The notes below the pieces were generated by a model. The model was not told where the DNA came from and did not search any database. It worked only from the letters and a program-made list of their open reading frames with translations. A program made the translations under genes and the position numbers. A stretch of DNA of 64,000 nt from a virus (taxonomy: Duplodnaviria > Heunggongvirae > Uroviricota > Caudoviricetes), in IMG/VR virus record IMGVR_UViG_3300031884_000008; one strand, written 5' to 3'. Position 1 is the first letter of the stretch. Each line of letters opens with the position of its first letter. Of this stretch, positions 22,395 through 57,100 are shown in pieces.

Positions 22395-22838
22395 ATGAAC
22401 ATATTTTTACAGGATTACTATTTACGCCTCAAGGCGTGGCATGAACTTAGAGAAATCCTTAAGGACAAAGATTTGCAAACAATCTGCGTCGAGGTTGATA
22501 AGTTTTGGCAATGGGCACCTATTAGTGCCCATTATCTTCATCCAGATGACATAGAAGACTGGCCTAATCCATGGGAACTACTCAACGTGAATACTTACTG
22601 TCTATATGGTCGTGCATTGGGCATGATTTATACTCTTGTGTTATTGGGCGTACAAGACATTGACTTTGTTGAAGGAATAAGTGATAATGACAAAGATGTC
22701 ATATTAGTTCTGGTTGATAACGCAAAATATGTTATGAATGGTGGTATAGATACAGTGTTAAATACTGATCTTGCGTCGTTCGACATAAAGAAACATATCA
22801 ACATAGATCCATTGACACAGAAGATAGGCAAGCAATGA
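22395..22838 (+). CDS. hypothetical protein (tandem paralog)
   Basis: YLHPDDIEDWPNPWELLN; sits right after the fibre gene. Confidence 0.4.
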   Translation: MNIFLQDYYLRLKAWHELREILKDKDLQTICVEVDKFWQWAPISAHYLHPDDIEDWPNPWELLNVNTYCLYGRALGMIYTLVLLGVQDIDFVEGISDNDKDVILVLVDNAKYVMNGGIDTVLNTDLASFDIKKHINIDPLTQKIGKQ

Positions 22839-24490
22839 CAATTAATGTAACAAAAAGATCAGGAATAATCGAACCCCTACAACTAGAAAAGTGGCAGTCG
22901 CAAATCGCTAAAATTTGTAGCGGCATCGCTGACATTAGCCAATCGATGATTGAAATCAAAGCTTCTCCTCATTTTTTTGATGGCATTACTACTAGAGAAA
23001 TTGACGAGCTAACCCTGCGCGCAATAGTAGACCTAATTGATATTGAATCTAATCCGGACGTTGGTCATACCAATTACCAATTTGTGGCAGGTAAGCAAAG
23101 ACTGTCTATGTTGCGCAAAGACGTATATGGACAATTTCAGCCGCCGCATCTTTATGAGATAGTAAAGAAGAACGTAGAAGTAGGGCTGTATACATCTGAA
23201 CTGCTTGATTGGTATACGGAAGACGATTGGAATAAAATGAATGAAATGCTTGACCATGAAAAGGATGAGCAATATTCATATGCGGCGATTGAACAATTAG
23301 TAGAAAAGTATCTAGTTCGCAACAGAGCAACTAAAGAAATCTACGAAACTCCACAAGTTAGATACATGATCGCCGCCGCGACGGTTTTTCACAGCGAAGA
23401 ACCTAATACAGCCAGAATGCGATATATTAAGGAATATTATAATGCTGCGAGTGATGGGCTTTTTACTCTTGCTACTCCTGTGCTTGCTGGCCTTGGCACT
23501 CCTACTAAACAATTTAGTAGCTGCGTTCTTATTCGTAGCGACGATGATCTAGATAGCATCTTTGCTTCCGGAGAGATGATGGCAAAGTATGCGAGCAAGC
23601 GTGCTGGTATTGGACTAGAGATAGGAAGATTGCGTTCATTAGGTTCGCCAATTCGCGGCGGAGAAATCATGCATACCGGTATGATTCCTTTTCTAAAGAA
23701 ATGGTTCGGAGACCTCCGTTCGTGTTCTCAGGGAGGAATCAGAAACGCATCCGCCACTGTCTTTTATCCTATCTGGCATCACCAATTCGATGACCTAATT
23801 GTATTAAAGAATAATCAGGGAACCGAAGAAACCCGTGTTCGTCATATGGATTATGGCGTTGTTCTCAGTGCATTCTTCTGGCGCCGATTCAAGAATAAGG
23901 AAAACATCACCTTCTTTGATCCAAATGAAGTTCCAGATTTATATGAAGCGTTCTATAAGAACACAGCAAAGTTTGAAGAACTTTATGTAAAGTACGAGAA
24001 ACGTAAAGACCTTCGTAAGAAGACAATGAGTGCTGAAGAAGTGTTTAAGGGAGGCATACTAAAGGAACGCACAGACACTGGCCGCATCTATTTGGTCTTT
24101 ATCGACAATGTTATGAAGCAAGGCCCGTTCGATCCTGAGTACCATACTATATATCAATCTAACCTTTGCTGTGTAACCGGTGAAACACAAGTAACTTTCT
24201 TGCACGAAAACGGCAACACAGAACAAATGTCTGTTTCTAGTGCTGTGGAAAGATTTGAATTAGGTAATTTAACTACTTCAAAGATTAAAAGTTTTAAGAA
24301 TGGTGAAGTTTCCTGGGAAAATATTTCTGCGGCAATTAAAACTAAAACAGTCACCGAACTGTATGAAATTGAAGATGAAAACGGTAATGTATTGAGATGC
24401 ACAGGAGACCATCGTGTTTTTACTAAGAATAGAGGTTATGTAAGAGCCGATGAATTAGTTGAAACTGACGAGTTATGTGTTGAAATTTGA
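22835..24490 (+). CDS. nrdA: ribonucleotide reductase class Ia alpha subunit, N-terminal fragment (to active-site SNLC) fused to intein N-terminal half
   Basis: NrdA motifs (QFSSCVL, SNLC); intein block A CVTGET begins at ~24173 directly after SNLC; block B RCTGDHRVFT; in-frame stop at 24488. Confidence 0.75.
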   Translation: MTINVTKRSGIIEPLQLEKWQSQIAKICSGIADISQSMIEIKASPHFFDGITTREIDELTLRAIVDLIDIESNPDVGHTNYQFVAGKQRLSMLRKDVYGQFQPPHLYEIVKKNVEVGLYTSELLDWYTEDDWNKMNEMLDHEKDEQYSYAAIEQLVEKYLVRNRATKEIYETPQVRYMIAAATVFHSEEPNTARMRYIKEYYNAASDGLFTLATPVLAGLGTPTKQFSSCVLIRSDDDLDSIFASGEMMAKYASKRAGIGLEIGRLRSLGSPIRGGEIMHTGMIPFLKKWFGDLRSCSQGGIRNASATVFYPIWHHQFDDLIVLKNNQGTEETRVRHMDYGVVLSAFFWRRFKNKENITFFDPNEVPDLYEAFYKNTAKFEELYVKYEKRKDLRKKTMSAEEVFKGGILKERTDTGRIYLVFIDNVMKQGPFDPEYHTIYQSNLCCVTGETQVTFLHENGNTEQMSVSSAVERFELGNLTTSKIKSFKNGEVSWENISAAIKTKTVTELYEIEDENGNVLRCTGDHRVFTKNRGYVRADELVETDELCVEI

Positions 24491-24523: not shown

Positions 24524-25459
24524 ATGTATAAAGAACTTTATAAGACTATAATTGACAACGCAAGAAAAGAAAACAGAATGAGAAATCAAGGAACATATTA
24601 TGAACGACACCATATCGTTCCTGATTTCTTGTACAAGAACAGAAAGAGAACAGGACCAAACGGGCATCTAGACGGTAATCCAGATAGCGCGGAGAATTTA
24701 ATTCTATTGACTTTTTCCGAACACTTAATGGCTCATTACTACTTGTATGAGATTTATAAAGGAACTCGTTATGAATACTCTGCTGGTTCTGCCCTGCAAT
24801 TCTTTTTTGTAAAAGCGACAGGCAACCACAAACGACAAATTAATTTGTCAGATGTTGATGAAAAGTTTCTTAAAGAAATGGAACACTTAAGACTACTAGG
24901 CAATGAATGTATTAGTAAGGCAAGAAAAGGAAAGATGCCTGTTGTCGATGCTGTGACTAGAGAAAAAATAGGATCAGTCTCCGTAGATCACCCTAAAGTT
25001 TTATCAGGGGAATGGGTTCATCATAGTAAAGGCGTTCCTGGAAAGTCTGCAAGAGATATGTCTGGTTCTAAAAATACTAACTTTAAGGAATTAACTCAGG
25101 ATCGAAGAGAAAGAATGTGGAAATGTGTGTCTGAATCTTGTCAAGAGGGTTACTTGAAGTTACACTTATTGCAGGATAATATGAAAAAAGAATTTGTAGA
25201 GTTTAAGAAAATTTCATTGGCGTGGATAGGCAAAAAGTTTGGATCTTTAGAAAATCTAATAAACGAAACGAATAAGAACTTGAATCTAAACATCAAATAT
25301 AATCCATATCATAGAAGCGCAGAGCAACGACGGGTTGCAGCAGAACACTCAAAAAAACATCGATGGTACAACAACGGCGTACAAAATGTAAGAGTCACAG
25401 ACGAAGAAGAATTTTGTAAACATAATCCAAATTATGTATTAGGAAGAATAAAAATATGA
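24524..25459 (+). CDS. free-standing HNH homing endonuclease located between split-intein halves
   Basis: YYERHHIVPDF...NGHLDGNPDSAENLILLTFSEHLMAH HNH motif; stop overlaps the start of the intein-C ORF (ATGA). Confidence 0.7.
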   Translation: MYKELYKTIIDNARKENRMRNQGTYYERHHIVPDFLYKNRKRTGPNGHLDGNPDSAENLILLTFSEHLMAHYYLYEIYKGTRYEYSAGSALQFFFVKATGNHKRQINLSDVDEKFLKEMEHLRLLGNECISKARKGKMPVVDAVTREKIGSVSVDHPKVLSGEWVHHSKGVPGKSARDMSGSKNTNFKELTQDRRERMWKCVSESCQEGYLKLHLLQDNMKKEFVEFKKISLAWIGKKFGSLENLINETNKNLNLNIKYNPYHRSAEQRRVAAEHSKKHRWYNNGVQNVRVTDEEEFCKHNPNYVLGRIKI

Positions 25460-26544
25460 TTAAAATTAAAAAAATTAAAGTAGAACCAACCGATGTATAT
25501 GACTTATCTGTGCCTGAAACAGAATGTTTCTTTGCTAATAACATATTAGTTCATAACTGCGAGATCCTACTACCTACAAAGTCATTCAAGAGACTAGATG
25601 ATGAGGCCGGCCGAATTGCGCTGTGTACCTTAGGGAGTATTAATTGGGGTGCGTTCCGTAACCCAGAAGATATGCGCCGAGCATGTCGTATTCTACTAAG
25701 AAGTCTGAATAACATTTTGGATTATCAAGACTTCCTTTCTATTCAGTCTAAGTTATCGAATGACGAGATTCGTCCAATCGGTATCGGTGTAACTAATCTC
25801 GCATACTGGCACGCTAAGCGCGGATATAAGTACGGAGACTCAGATGCACTACAGGACGTAAAGAGTTGGGCAGAACACCAGACTTACTACCTCATGGAAG
25901 CAAATGTAGAATTGGCAAAAGAGCGTGGAAAGTGCATTGACTCTGACAAGACCCGCTATGGTCAAGGAATCTTTCCCTGGGAACTTAGAGCCAATGGTGT
26001 AAACGAGCTAGCAGACTTTAATCCTGAGCTTGATTGGGAATCACTACGATTTGAAATGAAAGAGTATGGTGTGCGAAACAGCACAGTTGGTGCCATTGCT
26101 CCGGTTGAATCTTCATCTGTTGCCATTAATTCAACTAATGGTATTGCACTACCAATGAGTTTGATTTCTGTTAAGGAATCAAAAGCGGGATCCTTCGTGC
26201 AAGTTGTCCCAGAATATCATAATATTAAGGTCAGAAAGAATTATCAGTTGATGTGGGATCAGGTTGATTGCGTCGAGTATCTTAAGACCTCTGCTGTTCT
26301 TGCTGCATACATGGATCAATCAATTTCAACTGATACGTTCTATAATCCAGCACATTTCCCTGATCGCAAGATACCAACTACGCTAATTGCTAAAAATTTG
26401 ATGCTAGCACATAAGTTCGGTCTCAAGACGCTTTATTATAGCCTCGTGTGTAAACAAGGTTCTAAAGAAGAAGCCGACGATGCACCTCTTATGCCTATAG
26501 ACTTTTTTGAAGATGAAGATTCCTGCGAGAGTTGTAAGTTATAG
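25456..26544 (+). CDS. nrdA: intein C-terminal half (34 aa, blocks F/G ...ILVHN) fused to NrdA C-terminal fragment
   Basis: VYDLSVPETECFFANNILVHN|CEILLPTK; C-extein resumes with CEI of the SNLC-x-EI active site at ~25558. Confidence 0.75.
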   Translation: MIKIKKIKVEPTDVYDLSVPETECFFANNILVHNCEILLPTKSFKRLDDEAGRIALCTLGSINWGAFRNPEDMRRACRILLRSLNNILDYQDFLSIQSKLSNDEIRPIGIGVTNLAYWHAKRGYKYGDSDALQDVKSWAEHQTYYLMEANVELAKERGKCIDSDKTRYGQGIFPWELRANGVNELADFNPELDWESLRFEMKEYGVRNSTVGAIAPVESSSVAINSTNGIALPMSLISVKESKAGSFVQVVPEYHNIKVRKNYQLMWDQVDCVEYLKTSAVLAAYMDQSISTDTFYNPAHFPDRKIPTTLIAKNLMLAHKFGLKTLYYSLVCKQGSKEEADDAPLMPIDFFEDEDSCESCKL

Positions 26545-37164: not shown

Positions 37165-40100
37165 ATGAAGCACGCGAAGGCTATTTTACTAGCAGTTACC
37201 GCTATAGTTTCCACACTCACACTCACAGCTTGCTTTACATCTAGACAACAAACTGCAAACGCAGAAAATATTCCAAACAATCCTGACTACAATTGGGACG
37301 TTCGTCCGATTTTGTCACAAAATTGCTTTGCTTGTCACGGGCAAGGAACACAGAAGGCTGGTCTACGGTTAGACATACAAAAAGCCGCTTACGATTCCAT
37401 ACCAGAAGACAAAACCAAACACGCTTTTGTTCCGGGTAATCCTAGTAAAAGCGAGGCATTTAAACGCATTACTTCGACTGATGCAGACTACAGAATGCCA
37501 CCTAAAGATTCTCATAAAACCCTGTCTGCACATGAAATCGCAATTATAAAGCGATGGATTGAACAAGGTGCTCACTATAAACAACACTGGGCATACATAA
37601 CACCGACAGTAGTAAAGCCAGAAAGAACTAAATGGGACAAGCAAGCTGTCAACGCCATTGATCGATATATCTATGCCAAATTAGCTACAGAAGGGTTATC
37701 TCCTTCTGCGGAAGCGGACAAAGAAACGCTTATAAATCGTGTTTATCTAGACCTAACTGGACTTCCTCCCTCGCTTCAAGAAGTAGATGCATTTATCAAT
37801 GACACCTCTCCTAATGCTTACGAGAAGATAGTAGATCATCTTTTATCATCTACCGAGTATGCAGAACGCCAAACAAATATTTGGATGGATGTTGCTCGGT
37901 ATGCAGACAGCCGCGGAGGACTAAATGACGGGGAACGAGGAATCAGTTTCCCGTATCGTGATTGGGTCATCAATGCGTTTAAACGCAACATGCCTTATGA
38001 TGAGTTTGTGACCTGGCAGCTTGCCGGCGATAAACTTAATAATGGTCATCCGACTCGTGAGCAATTACTTGCAAGTGCCTTCCTTAAAGAAGGTCGTCAA
38101 GATTCAGAGGGCGGATCAATTGATGAAGAATTTAGAACTAATTATGTCCAAGAAAGAACAGAATTAATAGGTAAAGACTTTTTGGGTCTAACCGTTGGGT
38201 GCGCCAAATGCCACAATCACAAATATGATGTGATTGCCCAATCAGATTACTATTCATTAGCTGGATTCTTTAATCAGATGGACGAGCGAGGACAAGGATC
38301 CGGTTCTCGTGGTACACCCGGCGGCGCCACAATCGAATGGCCGACTCCGCTGCAATCAAAAAGACTTGAGGCCGCCCATGCAATTACAGTAGCTAAAGAA
38401 CAAGCTTATCAAGTTGCTTTACAATCTGCGCAGATCAATAAAATAGCATTAGACACAAACCGAACAACATTTATACAATCATCTATTCAAGCAGACACAC
38501 AAGCCTATTATCCATTAGATGCAGGGTACAAAGATTCATTTGATGAACTGTACCTAGATCCGCAACCAACGGCACCTGGTGAACCTCTACCTAATCAAAA
38601 AAATAACTTTCCCGGATTAACTGCGGCTCAAGTTACTGCCATATTACAAAATAAAATTCTTGCAGATGTAAAGGTCGGTAAACCAACTCCTAGTATGACA
38701 CCTAAAGATGATTCTATGTCTCCTAAAACCATCAAGTCTTCAGATATAAAGGACCCTAAAAAAGCACCCCTTCGCCGCTCACGATTCGGCGGTATGGACG
38801 GAGACATTGCTGCAATGAAGGCGGACCCTAATCTTCCGAGAATAGCTTCTCATGAAATCGATTGGGCTATGGAACAGCTTGTAGCATCCGGATTTACTGA
38901 TGATCGTTTAGGAGACCCACAACGTATCATGAAACGTCAACTTCCACAATGGATTCATGAAGATTCACTGTTGTGGACAGATGCAGGGATTCAGGGTGAA
39001 AAGCGTGGATTTGTAAGTAATGTAAAGTTTGTTTCCGGTCACAAGGGACAGGGAATTCAACTAAAAGATTCAGTTTTTGCTGCGGACAAAAGTGTAGGTA
39101 TGTTTGAAAGAACTCAACCATACACATTAGATTTTTGGTTGAAGCTTCCAAAGAAACCATATTACGACAATACTCGTCCATTAGGACCGTCTGCATCTAT
39201 AATTTATAACAACGGCGGCATTGAAGGGCTTGGTTATGAATTAACCATGTCTAATAATAAAATGGCATATTCTATTACTCACCAAGCTCCAACCGACATG
39301 CTTAGAATTTCTACGATTCAAGATGTTCCCACAGGTCGTTGGGTTCATATAACTTCTACTTATGACGGTAACTCCAAAGCGGCTGGTATGCATCTATATT
39401 TTGATGGTGTAGAACAAAAAGCTCAAATTGATCATGACCACTTAACACGTAGCGCATTTCCGCGCGGCGGAAACAGTCAGTTTGTGAGTTATTTTGGGTT
39501 GTCTGCTGGAGTTAACTTTAATAGACCGGAATTAGTAGACGGCGCCATTGATGAGCTACGTGTGATTACACGGGCATTGACTCCTACGGAAATTACTTAT
39601 CTGCAGGATCCTGCACTACTTAAACAAGTTCCGGCACAGCAAGCAATATCTGATATGAAGTTAATTATGGCTGAACTGGATCCTGCGGTTCAACGAGCCT
39701 GGCAAGAGATGACAGATGCACGACTTGCTGAACAACGCATAGAAACTCCGATCTATCGTGTCATGGTTGCAGGAGATCAGGCTATTCCTCGTAAAAACTT
39801 CGTGTTAGATCGTGGGGTCTATAACAGCTATCTACAAGAAGTAAAACCTCAGGCACCGAACCGAGTATTTGCATGGAACGAAACTTTACCTAGAGACCGT
39901 TTGGGACTAACTGAATGGATGTTTGATCCGAAAAATCCGCTCGTTGCTAGGGTTTATGTAAACCGCATATGGCAAAATCATTTCGGTACTGGTATAGTTC
40001 AAACGGTAGATGATTTTGGTACACAAGGAACTAATCCAACTCATTCGGAACTACTTGATTACCTAGCCGTAGAGTTTATTAGGTCTGGTTGGGATATAAA

Positions 40101-40836
40101 GCACATACAAAAACTAATAGTTATGTCTGCAACTTATCGTCAAAATTCTAATATTACGCATGACGCATTAGAAAAAGATCCACGAAATTTTCTTCTAGAA
40201 CGAGGACCACGTTTTAGAATGCCAGCAGAAGTTATTCGTGATAATGCATTAGCTGCCTCTGGTCTGTTACTTAAGAAAGTGGGCGGAGATGCAGTATTCC
40301 CATATGCTCCAGATGCAATTTGGGATGGTGTAGCGCAAGGTGCGGTTATTTATCCTACAAATGAACCGGATGATCAAATGCACAGACGATCTATGTATAC
40401 CTATATAAAGCGGAACTCACCAGTAGCCAACTTAGTACCGTTTGACATGCCAGATCGCTACAATGCACAAGTTCTACGTCCAGTGTCAACTACACCTCTG
40501 CAATCATTGGTTATGTTGAATGACGTTCAATTTATGGAAGCTTATCGTAAGCTATCTGAAAGAGCAATCAAGTCTTCTGCAAATCAAGATCAACAACTGA
40601 TAACGATGTTCCGTTTGGCTGTTCGGCGCCATCCAAATGATAATGAACTATCAGTATTGAGGAAATATCGTGTTGCTGAAATTAGCAGAATGCAGAATTC
40701 CCCTGATGAAGTAAAAAAGATACTTTCTATGGGGGTTTCTCCTACCGATACTTCGATTGATCCGGCCCAACTCGCAGCAATGACTATGGTCACTGCAAGC
40801 GTCATGAATACCCCAGACGCATATACTTTGCACTAA
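37165..40836 (+). CDS. PSCyt1 (planctomycete cytochrome c) - DUF1549/PSCyt2 - LamG-like - DUF1553/PSD1 multidomain lipoprotein
   Basis: Lipobox LTAC; DVRPILSQNCFACHGQGTQKAGLRLD (PSCyt1 CxxCH); LDLTGLPPSLQEVDAFI...WMDVARYADS...PYDEFVTWQLAGD (DUF1549); TTPLQSLVMLNDVQFMEAYRKLSER (DUF1553). Confidence 0.7.
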   Translation: MKHAKAILLAVTAIVSTLTLTACFTSRQQTANAENIPNNPDYNWDVRPILSQNCFACHGQGTQKAGLRLDIQKAAYDSIPEDKTKHAFVPGNPSKSEAFKRITSTDADYRMPPKDSHKTLSAHEIAIIKRWIEQGAHYKQHWAYITPTVVKPERTKWDKQAVNAIDRYIYAKLATEGLSPSAEADKETLINRVYLDLTGLPPSLQEVDAFINDTSPNAYEKIVDHLLSSTEYAERQTNIWMDVARYADSRGGLNDGERGISFPYRDWVINAFKRNMPYDEFVTWQLAGDKLNNGHPTREQLLASAFLKEGRQDSEGGSIDEEFRTNYVQERTELIGKDFLGLTVGCAKCHNHKYDVIAQSDYYSLAGFFNQMDERGQGSGSRGTPGGATIEWPTPLQSKRLEAAHAITVAKEQAYQVALQSAQINKIALDTNRTTFIQSSIQADTQAYYPLDAGYKDSFDELYLDPQPTAPGEPLPNQKNNFPGLTAAQVTAILQNKILADVKVGKPTPSMTPKDDSMSPKTIKSSDIKDPKKAPLRRSRFGGMDGDIAAMKADPNLPRIASHEIDWAMEQLVASGFTDDRLGDPQRIMKRQLPQWIHEDSLLWTDAGIQGEKRGFVSNVKFVSGHKGQGIQLKDSVFAADKSVGMFERTQPYTLDFWLKLPKKPYYDNTRPLGPSASIIYNNGGIEGLGYELTMSNNKMAYSITHQAPTDMLRISTIQDVPTGRWVHITSTYDGNSKAAGMHLYFDGVEQKAQIDHDHLTRSAFPRGGNSQFVSYFGLSAGVNFNRPELVDGAIDELRVITRALTPTEITYLQDPALLKQVPAQQAISDMKLIMAELDPAVQRAWQEMTDARLAEQRIETPIYRVMVAGDQAIPRKNFVLDRGVYNSYLQEVKPQAPNRVFAWNETLPRDRLGLTEWMFDPKNPLVARVYVNRIWQNHFGTGIVQTVDDFGTQGTNPTHSELLDYLAVEFIRSGWDIKHIQKLIVMSATYRQNSNITHDALEKDPRNFLLERGPRFRMPAEVIRDNALAASGLLLKKVGGDAVFPYAPDAIWDGVAQGAVIYPTNEPDDQMHRRSMYTYIKRNSPVANLVPFDMPDRYNAQVLRPVSTTPLQSLVMLNDVQFMEAYRKLSERAIKSSANQDQQLITMFRLAVRRHPNDNELSVLRKYRVAEISRMQNSPDEVKKILSMGVSPTDTSIDPAQLAAMTMVTASVMNTPDAYTLH

Positions 40837-40847
40837 GAGGAATAAAC

Positions 40848-42311
40848 ATGAATAATGATCCAAATGAATTAATAAATTTTGCCCGCCGGTCACTTTTAGG
40901 CACGAGTATGGGATTGGGTGTGATAGCCGGCGCCGAATTATTAGGTGCTACCAAATCACAAGCAGCCAGTGCTGCACCTTCCAGCGAGACTGGCCCAGAT
41001 TTAGGTAAGTTAACTACAGGTCAATTTCCAGCAAGAGCAAAGCGTGTAATTGACATTCACATGAAAGGAGCAGTATCCCAAATTGATACTTTTGATTATA
41101 AGCCAGAAGTTATCAAGCGCCATGGGCAAGAAATTCCACCTTCTGTAAAGGGTCATGGCAAAATATCATCAATGTCTAATGGACAAACTTCTTTCCCTCT
41201 TATGGGTCCTATTGCTCCATATAAACAATATGGTCAATGTGGTCGTTGGGTTTCAGACCTAATGCCACATATAGGGTCTATATCAGATGATCTAACCTTC
41301 ATTCATTCTATATGGACTCCCCAAGTTAATCACGATCCAGCAGACATTCTCATGCATACTGGGTTTCAATTAGCGGGCCGCCCTGCCGCTGGAGCATGGG
41401 TTAATTATGCATTAGGGACTGATAACTCTAATCTCCCTTCATATGTAGTCATGAAATCTCAGTTCCAATCAGCAGGGGTTGGCGCTACTCAGGCTACTTG
41501 GTCAGCAGGATTTTTGCCCTCTAATCACCAAGGTGTTGAATTTCGTTCTGGTAATTCTCCTGTTCTTTATGTAAGCAATCCAGATGGCATTAGTCGTGAA
41601 GAACGAAGAAGTCAAATTGATCTTATCGGTGAATTATCGCGCTATCAGTATCAGACGACCGATGACCCAGAAGTCTTAGCCAAAATTGCTCAATATGAAA
41701 TGGCATATCGTATGCAAGATTCTGTACCTGAGGTAACTGATCTATCTGATGAACCACAATATATACTCGATATGTATGGTCCTCAGGTTCATCAACCAGG
41801 TAGCTTTGCTCGCAATTGCCTATTAACACGTCGTCTTATTGAACGCGGTGTTAAGTATGTCAACCTAATTCAAGTTGGATGGGATCACCATAATGGTATT
41901 GCCCGCCGACATCCTAGTGACTGTTGGGCAGTAGATCAGCCATCTGCTGCTTTGGTGACGGATTTAAAGCAGCGAGGACTTCTAGATGATACTCTTGTAA
42001 CTTGGAAGGGTGAATTCGGTAGAACTGTATACGCGCAAGGAGGAATAAATCCAAACTGCGGGCGTGACCATCACGGAGGAAACTTTACGATGTGGATGGC
42101 CGGAGGCGGAACAAAACCTGGCATCGAATACGGCAAATCAGATGATTTCTCTTATAATGTTGTGGAAAATCCAGTAGAAGTTCACGATTTAAATGCTACT
42201 GTGTTATATCTTTTAGGAATTGATCACAAACAACTTACATACCATTATCAAGGTAGAGATTTCCGTTTAACTGATACTGCAGGTAAAGTAGTTCAAGGAA
42301 TAATTGCTTAA
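40848..42311 (+). CDS. DUF1501 (sulfatase-like) protein with Tat signal, canonical partner of DUF1549/DUF1553 proteins
   Basis: RRSLLG twin-arginine motif; DIHMKGAVSQIDTFDYKPE...GRDHHGGNFTMWMAGGG. Confidence 0.7.
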   Translation: MNNDPNELINFARRSLLGTSMGLGVIAGAELLGATKSQAASAAPSSETGPDLGKLTTGQFPARAKRVIDIHMKGAVSQIDTFDYKPEVIKRHGQEIPPSVKGHGKISSMSNGQTSFPLMGPIAPYKQYGQCGRWVSDLMPHIGSISDDLTFIHSIWTPQVNHDPADILMHTGFQLAGRPAAGAWVNYALGTDNSNLPSYVVMKSQFQSAGVGATQATWSAGFLPSNHQGVEFRSGNSPVLYVSNPDGISREERRSQIDLIGELSRYQYQTTDDPEVLAKIAQYEMAYRMQDSVPEVTDLSDEPQYILDMYGPQVHQPGSFARNCLLTRRLIERGVKYVNLIQVGWDHHNGIARRHPSDCWAVDQPSAALVTDLKQRGLLDDTLVTWKGEFGRTVYAQGGINPNCGRDHHGGNFTMWMAGGGTKPGIEYGKSDDFSYNVVENPVEVHDLNATVLYLLGIDHKQLTYHYQGRDFRLTDTAGKVVQGIIA

Positions 42312-42369
42312 GGCTTGACATTCAGCGTATATTATCGTATTATTCGTTACATAAGAGTTATGCGCGCCT

Positions 42370-42450
42370 GAGGCTGAATGGTTTCACAAGAGTCTCTAAA
42401 GCTCAAGATTGCAGGTTCAAATCCTGTCGGGCCCGCCACTCTTAAAATAT
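42370..42450 (+). pseudogene. tRNA 3'-half remnant (T-arm/acceptor ...GCAGGTTCAAATCCTGTCGGGCCCGCCA) without matching 5' half
   Basis: Canonical T-loop and CCA end seen but no complementary acceptor 5' strand upstream. Confidence 0.35.
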
Positions 42451-48418: not shown

Positions 48419-48530
48419 GGTCCTAGGTGGTTTTCCTTGGTGGGAAAGGGTGTGACGTTCGAATCGTCTCTATAGGACTTGGGTGCCCCAAAAGCGGTTT
48501 GATTCCGCTAGCCAATACGACTTTATCATG
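48419..48530 (+). ncRNA. tRNA-like element(s) with T-arms (GACGTTCGAATCGTC; AGCGGTTTGATTCCGCT) that do not fold into one canonical cloverleaf
   Basis: Two T-loop consensus segments, stem-triloop TTGGG-TGC-CCCAA; acceptor pairing imperfect. Confidence 0.25.
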
Positions 48531-48549
48531 CGCACTTCGTACAATAGTA

Positions 48550-48622
48550 GTACCGCTGTCTCCAAAGCAGCAGACGTGGGTTCGATTCCAATTAGACCCA
48601 CCAAATTGCGCATTGCACACCA
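48550..48622 (+). pseudogene. degenerate tRNA-Trp(CCA)-like copy (good D and anticodon arms, disrupted T-stem/acceptor)
   Basis: GTACAATAGTAGTAC D-arm; GCTGT-CTCCAAA-GCAGC anticodon arm; T-stem 3' strand does not pair. Confidence 0.3.
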
Positions 48623-49129: not shown

Positions 49130-49203
49130 TGAGGGTTCGTCTAATAGTAGGATATTTGACTCTGAATCAGAAGATCCAGGTGCGAGTCCTGGCCCCTCAT
49201 CCA
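49130..49203 (+). tRNA. tRNA-Gln(CUG)-like
   Basis: TTTGA-CTCTGAA-TCAGA anticodon arm; good T-arm; weak D-stem. Confidence 0.45.
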
Positions 49204-49221
49204 ACATACCAGCGAGGAAAT

Positions 49222-49605
49222 ATGAAACTGAAAATGTACTGCATCTTCGCTAAAGAAAGCGTAGACAAGATGAAAGGTAATCGCGGAAAGCTTGCTTCTA
49301 TGGCAGGTCACGCATACCTTCATGCTTATTGGAATGCAGTTAGTCTTGAGGTTTCTTCGGACTGCAATCTTCAAGCAATCCAGTACAAGAACAGTGATCA
49401 TGCGTATAAGATCACTCTTATTGTTGACACGGTAGCCGAACTAGAAGTGATTCAAGAGGCATACAAGAATGTATGCGGTGTCTCGTTAGTTAAAGACGCT
49501 GGGTTCACGGTATTCAACGAACCGACTGTTACTTGTTTAGGACTCGGTCCTATTCGAGAAGACTTGATCGGTGAAGATTTGAAAGCCTTGAAGCTATTCA
49601 TGTAG
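49222..49605 (+). CDS. peptidyl-tRNA hydrolase, PTH2 family
   Basis: MKGNRGKLASMAGHAYLHAY matches PTH2 GKGK-AAQ-xHA motif; C-terminal GLGPI...LKLF; embedded in the tRNA array. Confidence 0.5.
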   Translation: MKLKMYCIFAKESVDKMKGNRGKLASMAGHAYLHAYWNAVSLEVSSDCNLQAIQYKNSDHAYKITLIVDTVAELEVIQEAYKNVCGVSLVKDAGFTVFNEPTVTCLGLGPIREDLIGEDLKALKLFM

Positions 49606-49751
49606 AGAGGATACTCTCGTTGGTACCCTGCACAATGGTTCTGACGAGGAAGGGTAGTGTGCAGCTACCCGAGAGATTATGGGGACGTAAGTGGGCTTAA
49701 CGCCGGGCTGGCAGTTCAGCAGGGAGGGTTCGATTCCCTCCGTCTCCACCA
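49606..49751 (+). ncRNA. structured RNA candidate: 5' nested-helix domain plus tRNA-like 3' module (acceptor GGGGACG/CGTCTCC, T-arm, ACCA)
   Basis: CTCTCG...CGAGAG and CTGCACA...TGTGCAG helices; ...GGGAGGGTTCGATTCCCTCCGTCTCCACCA 3' end. Confidence 0.35.
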
Positions 49752-50068
49752 AAATAACTCGGCGGGTGAAGAACACCGTAAGTCCGCAGAATTCATGTTG
49801 CTCTAGTGTAGATGGTCTGCACGCGAGACCGAAAATCTCGAGGTTTCGGATCATTACCGAAGGGCAACACCATTTATGTCTCCTCAGGTTCATAGCGTGC
49901 TAAAGGCGTCAAGTCGCCGGGAGACACCATTTTTACTGTAGGTGATTATTGCAAGCCCTGCAGAATGAGATATACGGTTGAGGAGAAACTAGGCAGCACA
50001 ATACTGCTATTAGTAAGCTTTTAAGGGGGTGACGGTCTCTAAAAATGAGGAACCCCAGTAAGTTTTAT

Positions 50069-50153
50069 GCGAGTATGGCGGAATTGGTAGACGCACTGGT
50101 TTTAGGTACCAGCGCCGAAAGGCGTGGGGGTTCGACTCCCTCTACTCGCACCA
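50069..50153 (+). tRNA. tRNA-Leu(UAG), class II
   Basis: Anticodon loop TTTAGGT. Confidence 0.75.
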
Positions 50154-50199
50154 ATATATAATGCCCCGATGGTGGAATTGTCCAGGGTATAAATGATGT

Positions 50200-50283
50200 G
50201 GGGGCGTGGCGGAATGGTCTACGCGGCTGTCTCAAAAGCAGCTTCCGAAAGGATTGGGGGTTCGACTCCCTCCGCCCCTACCA
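50200..50283 (+). tRNA. tRNA-Leu(CAA), class II
   Basis: Anticodon loop CTCAAAA. Confidence 0.75.
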
Positions 50284-50289
50284 AATTAG

Positions 50290-50853
50290 TTACATACCGG
50301 CTTCTGCTTTAAGTGCATCAAGCTGTCTATCGTAATCTTTAGCCCAACCCAAAATAGTCTGTTTTAGTCGAGAGAACACATCTCCTACAGCTTCTTTGAT
50401 TGGCTTTACTGACATTGCAGGACTTTTTTGAGTCACTGTAACCATTTGCTTTTTAAGCCCCTCTAACACTACGATCAATTCAGGTGTTAGATGCTTCTCT
50501 AATTCAGTTAAAATATCTTTGTACTTTGGAGTTCTAGTTTCTTCCGGATCCTTAGTCAACGTAAAGATAAAGCTAAGAGTCTCAACAACTCTAGTGCGAA
50601 CGGCATCTTCTGCGTCAAACAAATCACTCACATTTTCTTTAGCTTCATCCTTTACGGCAGCTTTAAGATATTTGACTTCTGATTCCAATTCATCAATTCT
50701 TGCAAGTTTTTGTGCAAGCTTTGTATATATTTGGCTATTATAGCTCTTAAGTCTAGCAATGACCTTTTTACCGTTAGGTTCGTCCTCGTACTCCAAATTA
50801 GGATTACGTGCTTCAAATAGGTTAAGTAGTTTACGAAAATCTGTAGTGTCCAT
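50290..50853 (-). CDS. hypothetical protein
   Basis: ORF 50290..50934; likely start MDTTDF; two ATAAATA boxes and a 16-bp direct repeat upstream. Confidence 0.4.
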   Translation of the reverse strand: MDTTDFRKLLNLFEARNPNLEYEDEPNGKKVIARLKSYNSQIYTKLAQKLARIDELESEVKYLKAAVKDEAKENVSDLFDAEDAVRTRVVETLSFIFTLTKDPEETRTPKYKDILTELEKHLTPELIVVLEGLKKQMVTVTQKSPAMSVKPIKEAVGDVFSRLKQTILGWAKDYDRQLDALKAEAGM

Positions 50854-51299: not shown

Positions 51300-51374
51300 G
51301 CCCTATTAGCTAAGAGGTATAGCAGCGCTTTCGTAAAGCGAAGGTCGGCAGTTCGATTCTGTCATGGGGCACCA
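51300..51374 (+). tRNA. tRNA-Thr(CGU)
   Basis: Anticodon loop TTCGTAA. Confidence 0.55.
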
Positions 51375-53127: not shown

Positions 53128-53203
53128 TGCCTAGGTGGCGGAATTGGTATAGCAGCGCTTTCGTAAAGCGAAGGCCGGCAGTTCAATCCTGTTCTAGGCA
53201 CCA
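53128..53203 (+). pseudogene. tRNA-Thr(CGU)-like duplicate with diverged 5' half (poor D-stem)
   Basis: 3' 55 nt near-identical to tRNA at 51300. Confidence 0.35.
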
Positions 53204-57024: not shown

Positions 57025-57100
57025 GGGGACATAGCTCATCTGGTAGAGCGACTGGTTTGCATCCAGTAGGTGGCGGGTTCGAGTCCTGTTGTCTCCACCA
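57025..57100 (+). tRNA. tRNA-Ala(UGC)
   Basis: G3:U70 identity pair; anticodon loop TTTGCAT. Confidence 0.8.

Follow-up and report, generated by a model that had tools for sequence, protein, structure and literature searches.

A conserved structured RNA module with an anticodon-less tRNA-Ala mimic in the tRNA array of a giant lake phage

The stretch analysed here (the window) covers 64,000 nt of the virus record IMGVR_UViG_3300031884_000008 (Caudoviricetes) and belongs to a giant lake phage. On its plus strand, between 47.5 and 62.4 kb, lies an array of at least 28 tRNA genes, nearly all with an encoded CCA. Within this array, pth2, encoding a peptidyl-tRNA hydrolase of the PTH2 family, ends at 49605 and is followed by a 146-nt segment that a first-pass annotation, made from the letters alone, had singled out as a structured RNA candidate with a tRNA-like 3' part and a separate 5' domain. 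Comparison with relatives bears this out: the segment is free of open reading frames (ORFs), conserved and structured, and positions 49610-49751 are, on comparative sequence grounds, one conserved structured RNA module. Its 3' 71 nt constitute a tRNA-Ala mimic without anticodon, similar to the tRNA-like domain (TLD) of transfer-messenger RNA (tmRNA), and its 5' part folds into two hairpins. The phage is a jumbo phage; its genes in the window include those for a tail-sheath protein of 1220 aa, a ribonucleotide reductase with an intein, and HNH and GIY-YIG endonucleases. Positions 49200-50300 are identical to the Joint Genome Institute (JGI) metagenome contig Ga0316225_1000021 (273 kb) and to contigs of many other samples. 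Searches of the INPHARED phage collection (megablast, blastn) give no near relative of the window, the matches being to tRNA-Leu only. Relatives of pth2 are numerous (546 homologues), and many are found inside phage tRNA arrays. Between 48900 and 50400, no sigma-70 promoter or intrinsic terminator scores above chance.

The acceptor stem, T arm and ACCA named by the first-pass annotation are read directly in the 71-nt mimic and are also found by ARAGORN (Table 1). The acceptor stem contains G1-C72, G2-C71 and the alanine-type G3:U70, accompanied by A73 and the 3' CCA. D arm and anticodon arm are both gone, and their place is taken by a hairpin of 9-10 bp with a 3-5-nt loop; RNAalifold independently gives one long hairpin at the centre (G15-C40 to C24-G30). 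ARAGORN labels the mimic tRNA-Ala(ggc), with a D stem of 2-3 bp and an anticodon stem in which one pair is mismatched and two are G.U, a cloverleaf that is ~12 kcal/mol worse than the long central hairpin in both lineages known to carry the module. Two focused scans with the Rfam tRNA model (RF00005) at E <= 10 list no match for the mimic; same-clan Rfam matches below the tmRNA score are hidden, so that any tRNA score of the mimic is <28 bits. The absence of canonical D and anticodon arms, already noticed in the first pass, is thus upheld, and the mimic fails as a cloverleaf defined by a D arm, a 5-bp anticodon stem and a 7-nt loop. In a strain variant (L045/L046, 99.2% identical over 1.1 kb, from two independent samples), three clustered changes in the apical loop (at 49706, at 49709 and deletion of 49713) turn AACGCC-GGGCU-GGC(A)GUU into a perfect stem with a 3-nt loop, AACGCCG-UGC-CGGCGUU. 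This reads as a typical quasi-palindrome correction; no 7-nt loop is possible in the variant, and the ARAGORN call is lost. Because it has no anticodon arm, a poor cloverleaf energy and a loop that is lost in L045/L046, the mimic is not a decoder and cannot read a codon. On such RNAs, labels of the kind 'tRNA-Ala(GGC)' would inflate the tRNA repertoires ascribed to phages.

Folding of single sequences is not significant (z = -1.5 for the segment, and -0.8, against shuffles), and since it does no better than shuffles, the case for a real structure rests on comparison. A diverged homologue, the Logan contig L054, whose pth2 protein is 75% identical, holds the whole 142-nt module at L054:913-1053, ~215 nt after its pth2. 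The module is better conserved than the gene, with 82.5% DNA identity between window and L054 against 75% for the pth2 coding DNA. The two versions differ by 24 substitutions, of which 17 fall in paired columns. None of the 41 proposed pairs is broken, and the changes comprise seven compensatory pairs and three wobble-preserving changes, the covariation that the first-pass annotation had suggested looking for; this count is not wholly independent for the two-hairpin 5' structure, part of which was drawn from the sequences compared; the pairs of the acceptor and T stems had been set in advance, and the remaining ones are also predicted by RNAalifold. When 24 substitutions are placed at random, none of 200,000 simulations leaves all 41 pairs intact, the neutral expectation being ~10 broken pairs. 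In the mimic, 10 positions are substituted, and eight of these make up four compensatory pairs, two in the T stem and two (6:67 and 7:66) in the acceptor stem; the other two are an A19-U36 to G.U change and the unpaired position 8. That no pair of the mimic is broken by its 10 substitutions has P = 0.0018 under random substitution. G3:U70 is invariant in all three versions of the module while 6:67 and 7:66 covary, and the central hairpin with its flanks is nearly invariant, with one change in ~33 nt, while the stems covary. The residue preceding the mimic, U(-1), is also conserved. Contigs whose pth2 is 69-73% identical do not contain the module, and its covariance model, run over 52 sources, retrieves tRNAs only.

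The 5' domain consists of two hairpins, Pa and Pb, which RNAalifold predicts independently. The first-pass annotation had drawn two nested helices here instead. Its inner complementarity, CTGCACA/TGTGCAG, is conserved: all seven pairs are kept in the homologues, with one A-U to G.U change in L054, and the duplex amounts to -9.4 kcal/mol. Its outer helix is not: CTCTCG/CGAGAG and a GGTA/TACC extension are each broken in L054 (C x C and C x U), where both sides have changed, and two hairpins are preferred over the nested fold because the same changes are compensatory in the two-hairpin fold. The conserved complementarity would then join the apical loop of Pa to the entire loop of Pb, and it is a candidate for an intramolecular kissing loop or pseudoknot, free of two-sided covariation; one strain, L084, is devoid of the UG in the Pb loop. 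Energies computed without the loop-loop term place the nested fold ahead of the two hairpins in the window (-20.4 vs -14.1 kcal/mol), and this order is reversed in L054 (-10.1 vs -16.1 kcal/mol), so that in the lineage of the window the 5' domain may switch between conformations. In L054, this domain comes after another tRNA-like element and not after the pth2 stop, and because of this intervening element, the domain belongs with the mimic and not with pth2. The intervening element is an observation in its own right: over ~200 nt directly after pth2 (L054:707-907), it combines the tRNA-like ends CCCTCT/AGAGGG, a T arm CCGGG-TTCAACT-CCCGG and ACCA with an insert of ~125 nt, and, a T-loop fragment excepted, it is called neither by Rfam nor by ARAGORN in a run permitting introns. 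At E <= 10, the 5' domain of the module itself has no Rfam match, including hammerhead, pistol and hepatitis delta virus (HDV)-like ribozymes, Y-RNA-like RNAs and GOLLD/ROOL, and its helix order A-X-A'-B-X'-B' fits none of the ribozymes considered. No counterpart is seen upstream of the tRNA-Ala genes of relatives or of other genes limited to a TLD.

As to its origin, a pattern scan of IMG/VR finds a canonical 74-nt tRNA-Ala(UGC) in at least 11 related contigs, including some with pth2 homologues. The 5' 11 nt and the 3' 28 nt of the mimic are identical to this tRNA (39/39 nt; e.g. L035:5615-5688 and L037:5159-5232), a likeness that embraces the acceptor stem, U8-A9-A10-G11, the T arm, A73 and CCA. 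What differs is the remodelled centre of ~35 nt, with neither a D stem nor a 7-nt UGC anticodon loop, and the additional structured leader of 71 nt. Gene order agrees with this kinship: L035 has Ala-Phe(GAA)-Leu(UAG)-Leu and the window mimic-Phe(GAA)-Leu(UAG)-Leu(CAA), which makes positional orthology of the mimic with the tRNA-Ala of L035 suggestive, although the other tRNAs of this block are only 58-72% identical between the two. A canonical tRNA-Ala(UGC) is also present in the window at 57025-57100, followed by tRNA-Pro, and the same succession of tRNA-Ala and tRNA-Pro is found in several relatives (e.g. L037, L028 and L026). Because the mimic shares its acceptor stem and T arm base for base with the tRNA-Ala(UGC) of relatives and occupies the Ala slot of the Ala-Phe-Leu-Leu block, descent from a phage tRNA-Ala appears more likely than descent from ssrA. 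In the simplest history compatible with these sequences, a phage tRNA-Ala would have lost its D and anticodon arms once alanine decoding had become redundant.

Table 1. Positions of the features at the locus (window numbering unless a contig is named) and of TLD-only genes in IMG/VR contigs
Feature	Position	Strand	Evidence or remark
pth2, peptidyl-tRNA hydrolase, PTH2 family	49222..49605	+	Pfam PF01981, E 1.4e-14
5' domain, two hairpins and 10-nt linker ending in U(-1)	49610..49680	+	Conserved at L054:913-982
Hairpin Pa, UCUCGUU/GACGAGG	49615-49621 with 49643-49649	+	2 compensatory pairs, 1 wobble change
CUGCACA, Pa apical loop	49628..49634	+	Complementary to Pb loop
Hairpin Pb, GGGUAG/CUACCC	49652-49657 with 49665-49670	+	1 compensatory pair
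UGUGCAG, entire 7-nt Pb loop	49658-49664	+	Complementary to CUGCACA
Anticodon-less tRNA-Ala mimic (TLD-like RNA)	49681..49751	+	ARAGORN, Rfam tmRNA model, covariation
Mimic acceptor stem, 7 bp with G3:U70	49681-87 / 49741-47	+	GGGGACG/CGTCTCC
Mimic central hairpin	49695-49720	+	In place of D and anticodon arms
Mimic T arm	49724-49740	+	GAGGG-TTCGATT-CCCTC, canonical
Mimic A73 and encoded CCA	49748-51	+	Sequence
Small hairpin, 3'-side internal loop (UAAGU), ~37 nt	49756..49792	+	Homologues L054:1270-1309, L035:3635-3668, L030:2556-2589
tRNA-Phe(GAA), encoded CCA	49797..49872	+	ARAGORN; Rfam tRNA 46.3 bits, E 8.7e-9
Truncated tRNA-like minihelix, 52 nt	49878..49929	+	7-bp GTCTCCT/GGGAGAC, 4-bp T-like stem, ACCA
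Conserved non-coding block	49936..50040	+	82% identical to L055:11404-11510
tRNA-Leu(UAG)	50069-50153	+	Downstream of the 49936-50040 block
TLD-only gene	L022:650-718		Rfam tmRNA, 62 bits
TLD-only gene	L023:8887-8966		Rfam tmRNA, 56.6 bits
TLD-only gene	L044:3520-3591		Rfam tmRNA, 52.1 bits
TLD-only gene	L040:6062-6137		Rfam tmRNA, 44.9 bits
TLD-only gene	L027:2762-2838		Rfam tmRNA, 30.3 bits

Downstream of the mimic, the region 49752-50060 had been described as an ORF-less spacer rich in hairpins, a view that has to be abandoned, as it contains two conserved leader blocks besides a tRNA-Phe(GAA) and the probable remnant of a tRNA. The first block is a small hairpin with one compensatory pair (G-C to C-G, by eye), which precedes tRNA-Phe in the window and tRNA-Asp in L054, L035 and L030. 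The tRNA-Phe, well above the Rfam tRNA threshold of 29 bits, is unusual in its C33, where U33 is near-universal, and in its A54/U58 T loop; its version in the strain variant (L045:1431-1506) has U33 and three changes in the T arm with respect to the window. Of the 11 differences that separate the L045/L046 strain from the window in 2 kb, four lie in this tRNA-Phe and three in the apical loop of the mimic. A related tRNA-Phe directly follows pth2 in L074/L075. The whole-window Rfam search at gathering threshold missed the gene, presumably through Rfam speed filters. The minihelix that comes next, with no Rfam match at E <= 10 and no homologue beyond near-identical strains, is probably a tRNA remnant. 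The second conserved block precedes tRNA-Leu(UAG) both in the window and in L055, with identical stretches of 14-28 nt alternating with variable ones, and may be a leader RNA or a regulatory site; possible covariation is seen by eye around its GCAG-CACAAUA-CUGC hairpin. Mechanically called ORFs of 49 and 70 aa do exist on the plus strand, but neither is conserved. The 49-aa ORF (49657-49806), preceded by a Shine-Dalgarno-like GGAAGGG, is frameshifted by the 1-nt deletion of L045/L046 and ends elsewhere in L054, and only 2/9 of its codon changes are synonymous. A 99-aa ORF on the minus strand runs antisense to two tRNA-like genes and is called in no source assembly.

Elsewhere in the array, tRNA callers disagree. 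A tRNA at 42364-42435 is found by Rfam only (34.6 bits), 48539-48592 is a partial tRNA covering model positions 10-63, and 48426-48518 is a 93-nt 'tRNA-Ser(cga)' without CCA called by ARAGORN only. The 'tRNA-Phe(aaa)' of ARAGORN at 53129-53203 is a chimera, in which the anticodon and T arms match tRNA-Thr(CGT) at 51300-51374 and the D arm is tRNA-Leu-like; therefore its anticodon call is unreliable. The array carries remnants. In the rest of the window, the large subunit of the ribonucleotide reductase is split by the intein into three consecutive ORFs (22835-24490, 24524-25459 and 25456-26544), with intein-splicing motifs at both junctions. At 37165-42311, inside this phage contig, a 1223-aa PSCyt1/PSCyt2/PSD1 (DUF1549/DUF1553) protein is encoded together with a 487-aa DUF1501 protein. 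Such gene pairs are typical of Planctomycetota and Verrucomicrobiota; the pair may be a hint to the host or an unusual auxiliary gene pair. In a related phage, an IS200/IS605 pair (TnpB-like OrfB and Y1 transposase) at L075:1634-3295 lies ~1 kb downstream of the pth2/tRNA-Phe unit.

What kind of RNA the mimic could be is suggested by the Rfam tmRNA model (RF00023), which aligns to it globally, over model positions 1-374, with the whole interior deleted. The window reaches 28.2 bits (E 2e-10, 81-nt scan) and L054 30.8 bits, and the TLD-only tmRNA of mycobacteriophage DS6A (L079 = JN698994 28478-28560) is aligned in the same mode with 43.2 bits, likewise below the gathering threshold of 47 bits. 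Because this end-to-end alignment, albeit below threshold, has the same mode as in known TLD-only tmRNAs, the mimic is suggestive of an RNA of known rather than new kind; this partly answers the first-pass question of whether a family such as a tmRNA fragment accounts for the segment. A full tmRNA is not at issue: with only ~33 nt between the 5' strand of the acceptor stem and the T arm, the RNA is too short, as stated in the first pass; ARAGORN finds no tmRNA, an mRNA-like domain with its resume codon and tag frame is absent, and instead of PK1-PK4 there is a single candidate pseudoknot, upstream of the acceptor stem. A permuted or two-piece tmRNA was considered and rejected: the tmRNA_permuted match (22.7-25.1 bits) covers only the T arm, the 3' strand and CCA, the downstream GGCGGGUG does not pair with CGUCUCC, and tRNA-Phe begins 45 nt later, leaving no room for a coding piece.

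The mimic retains an alanine identity set that, to judge from its sequence, is intact and conserved. RNase P recognises the stack of acceptor stem and T arm, U(-1) and CCA; alanyl-tRNA synthetase (AlaRS) recognises G3:U70 and its acceptor context independently of the anticodon; and EF-Tu binds the acceptor stem and T arm. Because the elements for RNase P, AlaRS and EF-Tu are kept and the anticodon is absent, the mimic should be excised, charged and delivered, and yet be unable to decode. RNase P would cut after U(-1) and free the 71-nt mimic, AlaRS should charge it with alanine and EF-Tu should bind the charged molecule, all three steps following from established tRNA biology. After cleavage by RNase P, the 5' domain would either be freed or stay attached to the pth2 mRNA at its 3' end. 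In the least certain step, the mimic would behave like the TLD of tmRNA, as the TLD-only tmRNA of DS6A. By analogy, it is tentatively proposed that the mimic is an RNase P-processed, alanine-chargeable and non-decoding RNA that acts on the machinery of trans-translation or ribosome rescue. It could compete for SmpB and EF-Tu, damping trans-translation of the host and sparing phage proteins from ssrA tagging. Alternatively, it could enter stalled ribosomes and accept the nascent chain without adding a tag, in which case the neighbouring Pth2 would hydrolyse peptidyl-RNA that drops off. A bolder version, unlikely as it stands, is that the jumbo phage independently made a tmRNA-like domain from its own tRNA-Ala and coupled it to the 5' kissing-loop domain and Pth2 as a module for tag-free rescue or hijacking of trans-translation. 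Alanylated RNA with host SmpB would take over the stalled chain, the peptidyl-RNA would drop off and Pth2 would recycle it. If true, this independent conversion of tRNA-Ala to a TLD-like RNA would repeat the presumed first step of tmRNA evolution.

Several observations weigh against a role in trans-translation. Scores of 28-31 bits stay below the threshold of the tmRNA model, and in the window the score comes from acceptor stem, T arm and CCA alone, the part corresponding to D-loop and connector being left unaligned. In tmRNA, the D-loop analogue and the 3' connector make up the site for SmpB. Counted by eye, the D-loop analogue agrees with the consensus (cuGGaUUCGAC) at 5/9 positions in the window (GUGGGCUUAAC) and at 6/9 in L054 (GUGGGCUUGAC), and the 3' connector reads CAGCAGG rather than the consensus GGAC. 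Because the D-loop consensus is poorly matched and the GGAC connector is absent, SmpB binding cannot be assumed. No SmpB gene lies within the 64 kb of the window (parent contig, 273 kb), and neither Pth2 nor SmpB is encoded beside the TLD-only genes of IMG/VR in the neighbouring DNA examined. In related phages, ordinary tRNAs come after pth2, and because of this, the adjacency of pth2 and the mimic may be incidental. Evidence of conservation comes from three sequences in two diverged lineages; IMG/VR pattern scans add no further homologue, a metagenome scan returned the window's own contig only, and GTDB scans gave 0 matches and 36 chance matches, none of which (0/36) fits the model of the module. 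Finally, the clear tRNA remnants and chimeras of the array raise the prior for decay.

Among other explanations, the mimic could be mere processing punctuation, a possibility that we regard as unlikely. Here, the top half of the tRNA would be kept as an RNase P/RNase Z cleavage signal for the array transcript, with no role in aminoacylation; cleavage would fix where the upstream RNA ends, and the 5' domain would protect this 3' end, as in MALAT1/mascRNA. In favour, what is retained matches exactly the elements recognised by RNase P, U(-1) is conserved, the 5' domain directly follows the pth2 stop codon, the minihelix after tRNA-Phe is a second element reduced to a top half with ACCA, and a weak Rfam match to mascRNA exists. 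This last match is insignificant, however (14.6 bits vs a threshold of 42.5). Any ordinary tRNA would serve the purpose, and relatives do have normal tRNAs directly after pth2. The 5' domain of L054 follows a tRNA-like element and not an mRNA. Moreover, a mere cleavage signal does not explain the near-invariance of the central hairpin beside covarying stems, and G3:U70 is retained.

Somewhat less probable again is an alanine carrier or decoy outside ribosome rescue, serving as alanyl donor for a transferase of the Fem/MprF type, or as decoy or sponge for a tRNA-directed defence nuclease of the host, AlaRS or EF-Tu. Such a role would suit the conserved alanine identity set, the withdrawal from decoding that comes with the loss of the anticodon, and the sequence-invariant central region, which suggests a specific binding partner; phage tRNA arrays are also widely viewed as counter-defence against tRNA nucleases. 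Known anticodon nucleases, however, need an anticodon loop, which the mimic does not have; no aminoacyl-transferase gene is recognised among the neighbours examined, and no precedent was found in the literature searched.

That the mimic is a functionless pseudogene, a redundant tRNA-Ala decaying after loss of its D and anticodon arms, is improbable. The second, intact tRNA-Ala(UGC), the remnants and chimeras of the array (the partial tRNA at 48539-48592, the minihelix and the chimera at 53129) and the strain variant with three changes in the apical loop could all be taken as signs of decay. Yet the variant reads as a single quasi-palindrome correction that lengthens the stem, and the absence of broken pairs with seven compensatory changes, the rejection of the neutral model and a conservation exceeding that of pth2 DNA speak for selection on structure. 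Least credible of all, and hardly to be entertained, is an unusual tRNA-Ala(GGC) that still functions in decoding, its D arm being reduced like that of certain organellar tRNAs: ARAGORN calls it in both the window and L054, and its 7-nt loop CU-GGC-AG fits Y32-U33-NNN-R37, but the imperfect anticodon stem, the D stem of 2-3 pairs, the energy deficit relative to the hairpin, the lack of a listed Rfam tRNA match and the destruction of the loop in both L045/L046 samples argue against it.

The proposed tRNA-Ala mimic acting on trans-translation can be compared with several known systems. The analogy with the stable RNAs of T4, drawn in the first pass, is retained in position and concept only. Like the module, T4 rnaC and rnaD (species 1 and 2) are small RNAs of unknown function in a phage tRNA cluster, beside a homing-endonuclease gene. 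Like the mimic, rnaC (L081, T4 70908-71046) folds with a T arm of canonical appearance, CCGGG-UUCGAAU-CCCGG, which a terminal stem closes; it is thus tRNA-like as well and has a large insert, but its sequence is unrelated to that of the module. Unlike the mimic, rnaC and rnaD have no G3:U70 acceptor stem and no encoded CCA in the annotated sequences, and the covariance model of the module has no match at E <= 1 in T4 68000-76000, which includes both. MALAT1/mascRNA shares with the module a tRNA-like element without functional anticodon arm directly after a structured RNA domain, and in both cases cleavage by RNase P would create the 3' end of the upstream RNA. It is, however, eukaryotic and without alanine identity.

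The closest parallel concerns RNAs reduced to the TLD of tmRNA. The mimic and the TLD-only tmRNA of DS6A are both phage-encoded and of ~70-83 nt, with a G1-G2-G3:U70 acceptor stem, a GGUUCGAUUCC T arm, a purine-rich connector containing GG, a helix replacing the anticodon arm and no mRNA-like domain. The likeness is reciprocal, since the best match of the covariance model of the module in the DS6A genome is the tmRNA gene (15.7 bits, E 0.013). Differences exist: the mimic scores lower (28-31 bits vs 43 for DS6A and 52-62 for L044/L023/L022), encodes CCA where DS6A ends in CUA, is preceded by a conserved two-hairpin domain and apparently descends from tRNA-Ala and not from ssrA. A molecule similar to the DS6A TLD is reported to inhibit tmRNA strongly, perhaps by titration of SmpB (PMC4131195; PMC11915505), and tmRNAs without coding sequence are also found in jakobid mitochondria and some plastids (PMC11915505). 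Mycobacteriophage tRNA arrays contain both a PTH2-like hydrolase and a tmRNA (PMC5966550), and huge phages carry tmRNA and SmpB (PMC7162821). Studied phage RNAs of the TLD-only type amount essentially to one case, DS6A. In IMG/VR contigs, at least five genes of 69-80 nt are little more than the TLD of a tmRNA (Table 1); all five align globally to the tmRNA model with the interior deleted, and three (L022, L023 and L044) exceed its threshold. TLD-only tmRNAs may thus recur in phages, as a tool against or in place of host trans-translation, and not be an oddity of DS6A. To these the lake phage element would add a second route to a TLD-like RNA, the remodelling of a tRNA-Ala, and with it a living model for the way in which tmRNA may have arisen from tRNA-Ala.

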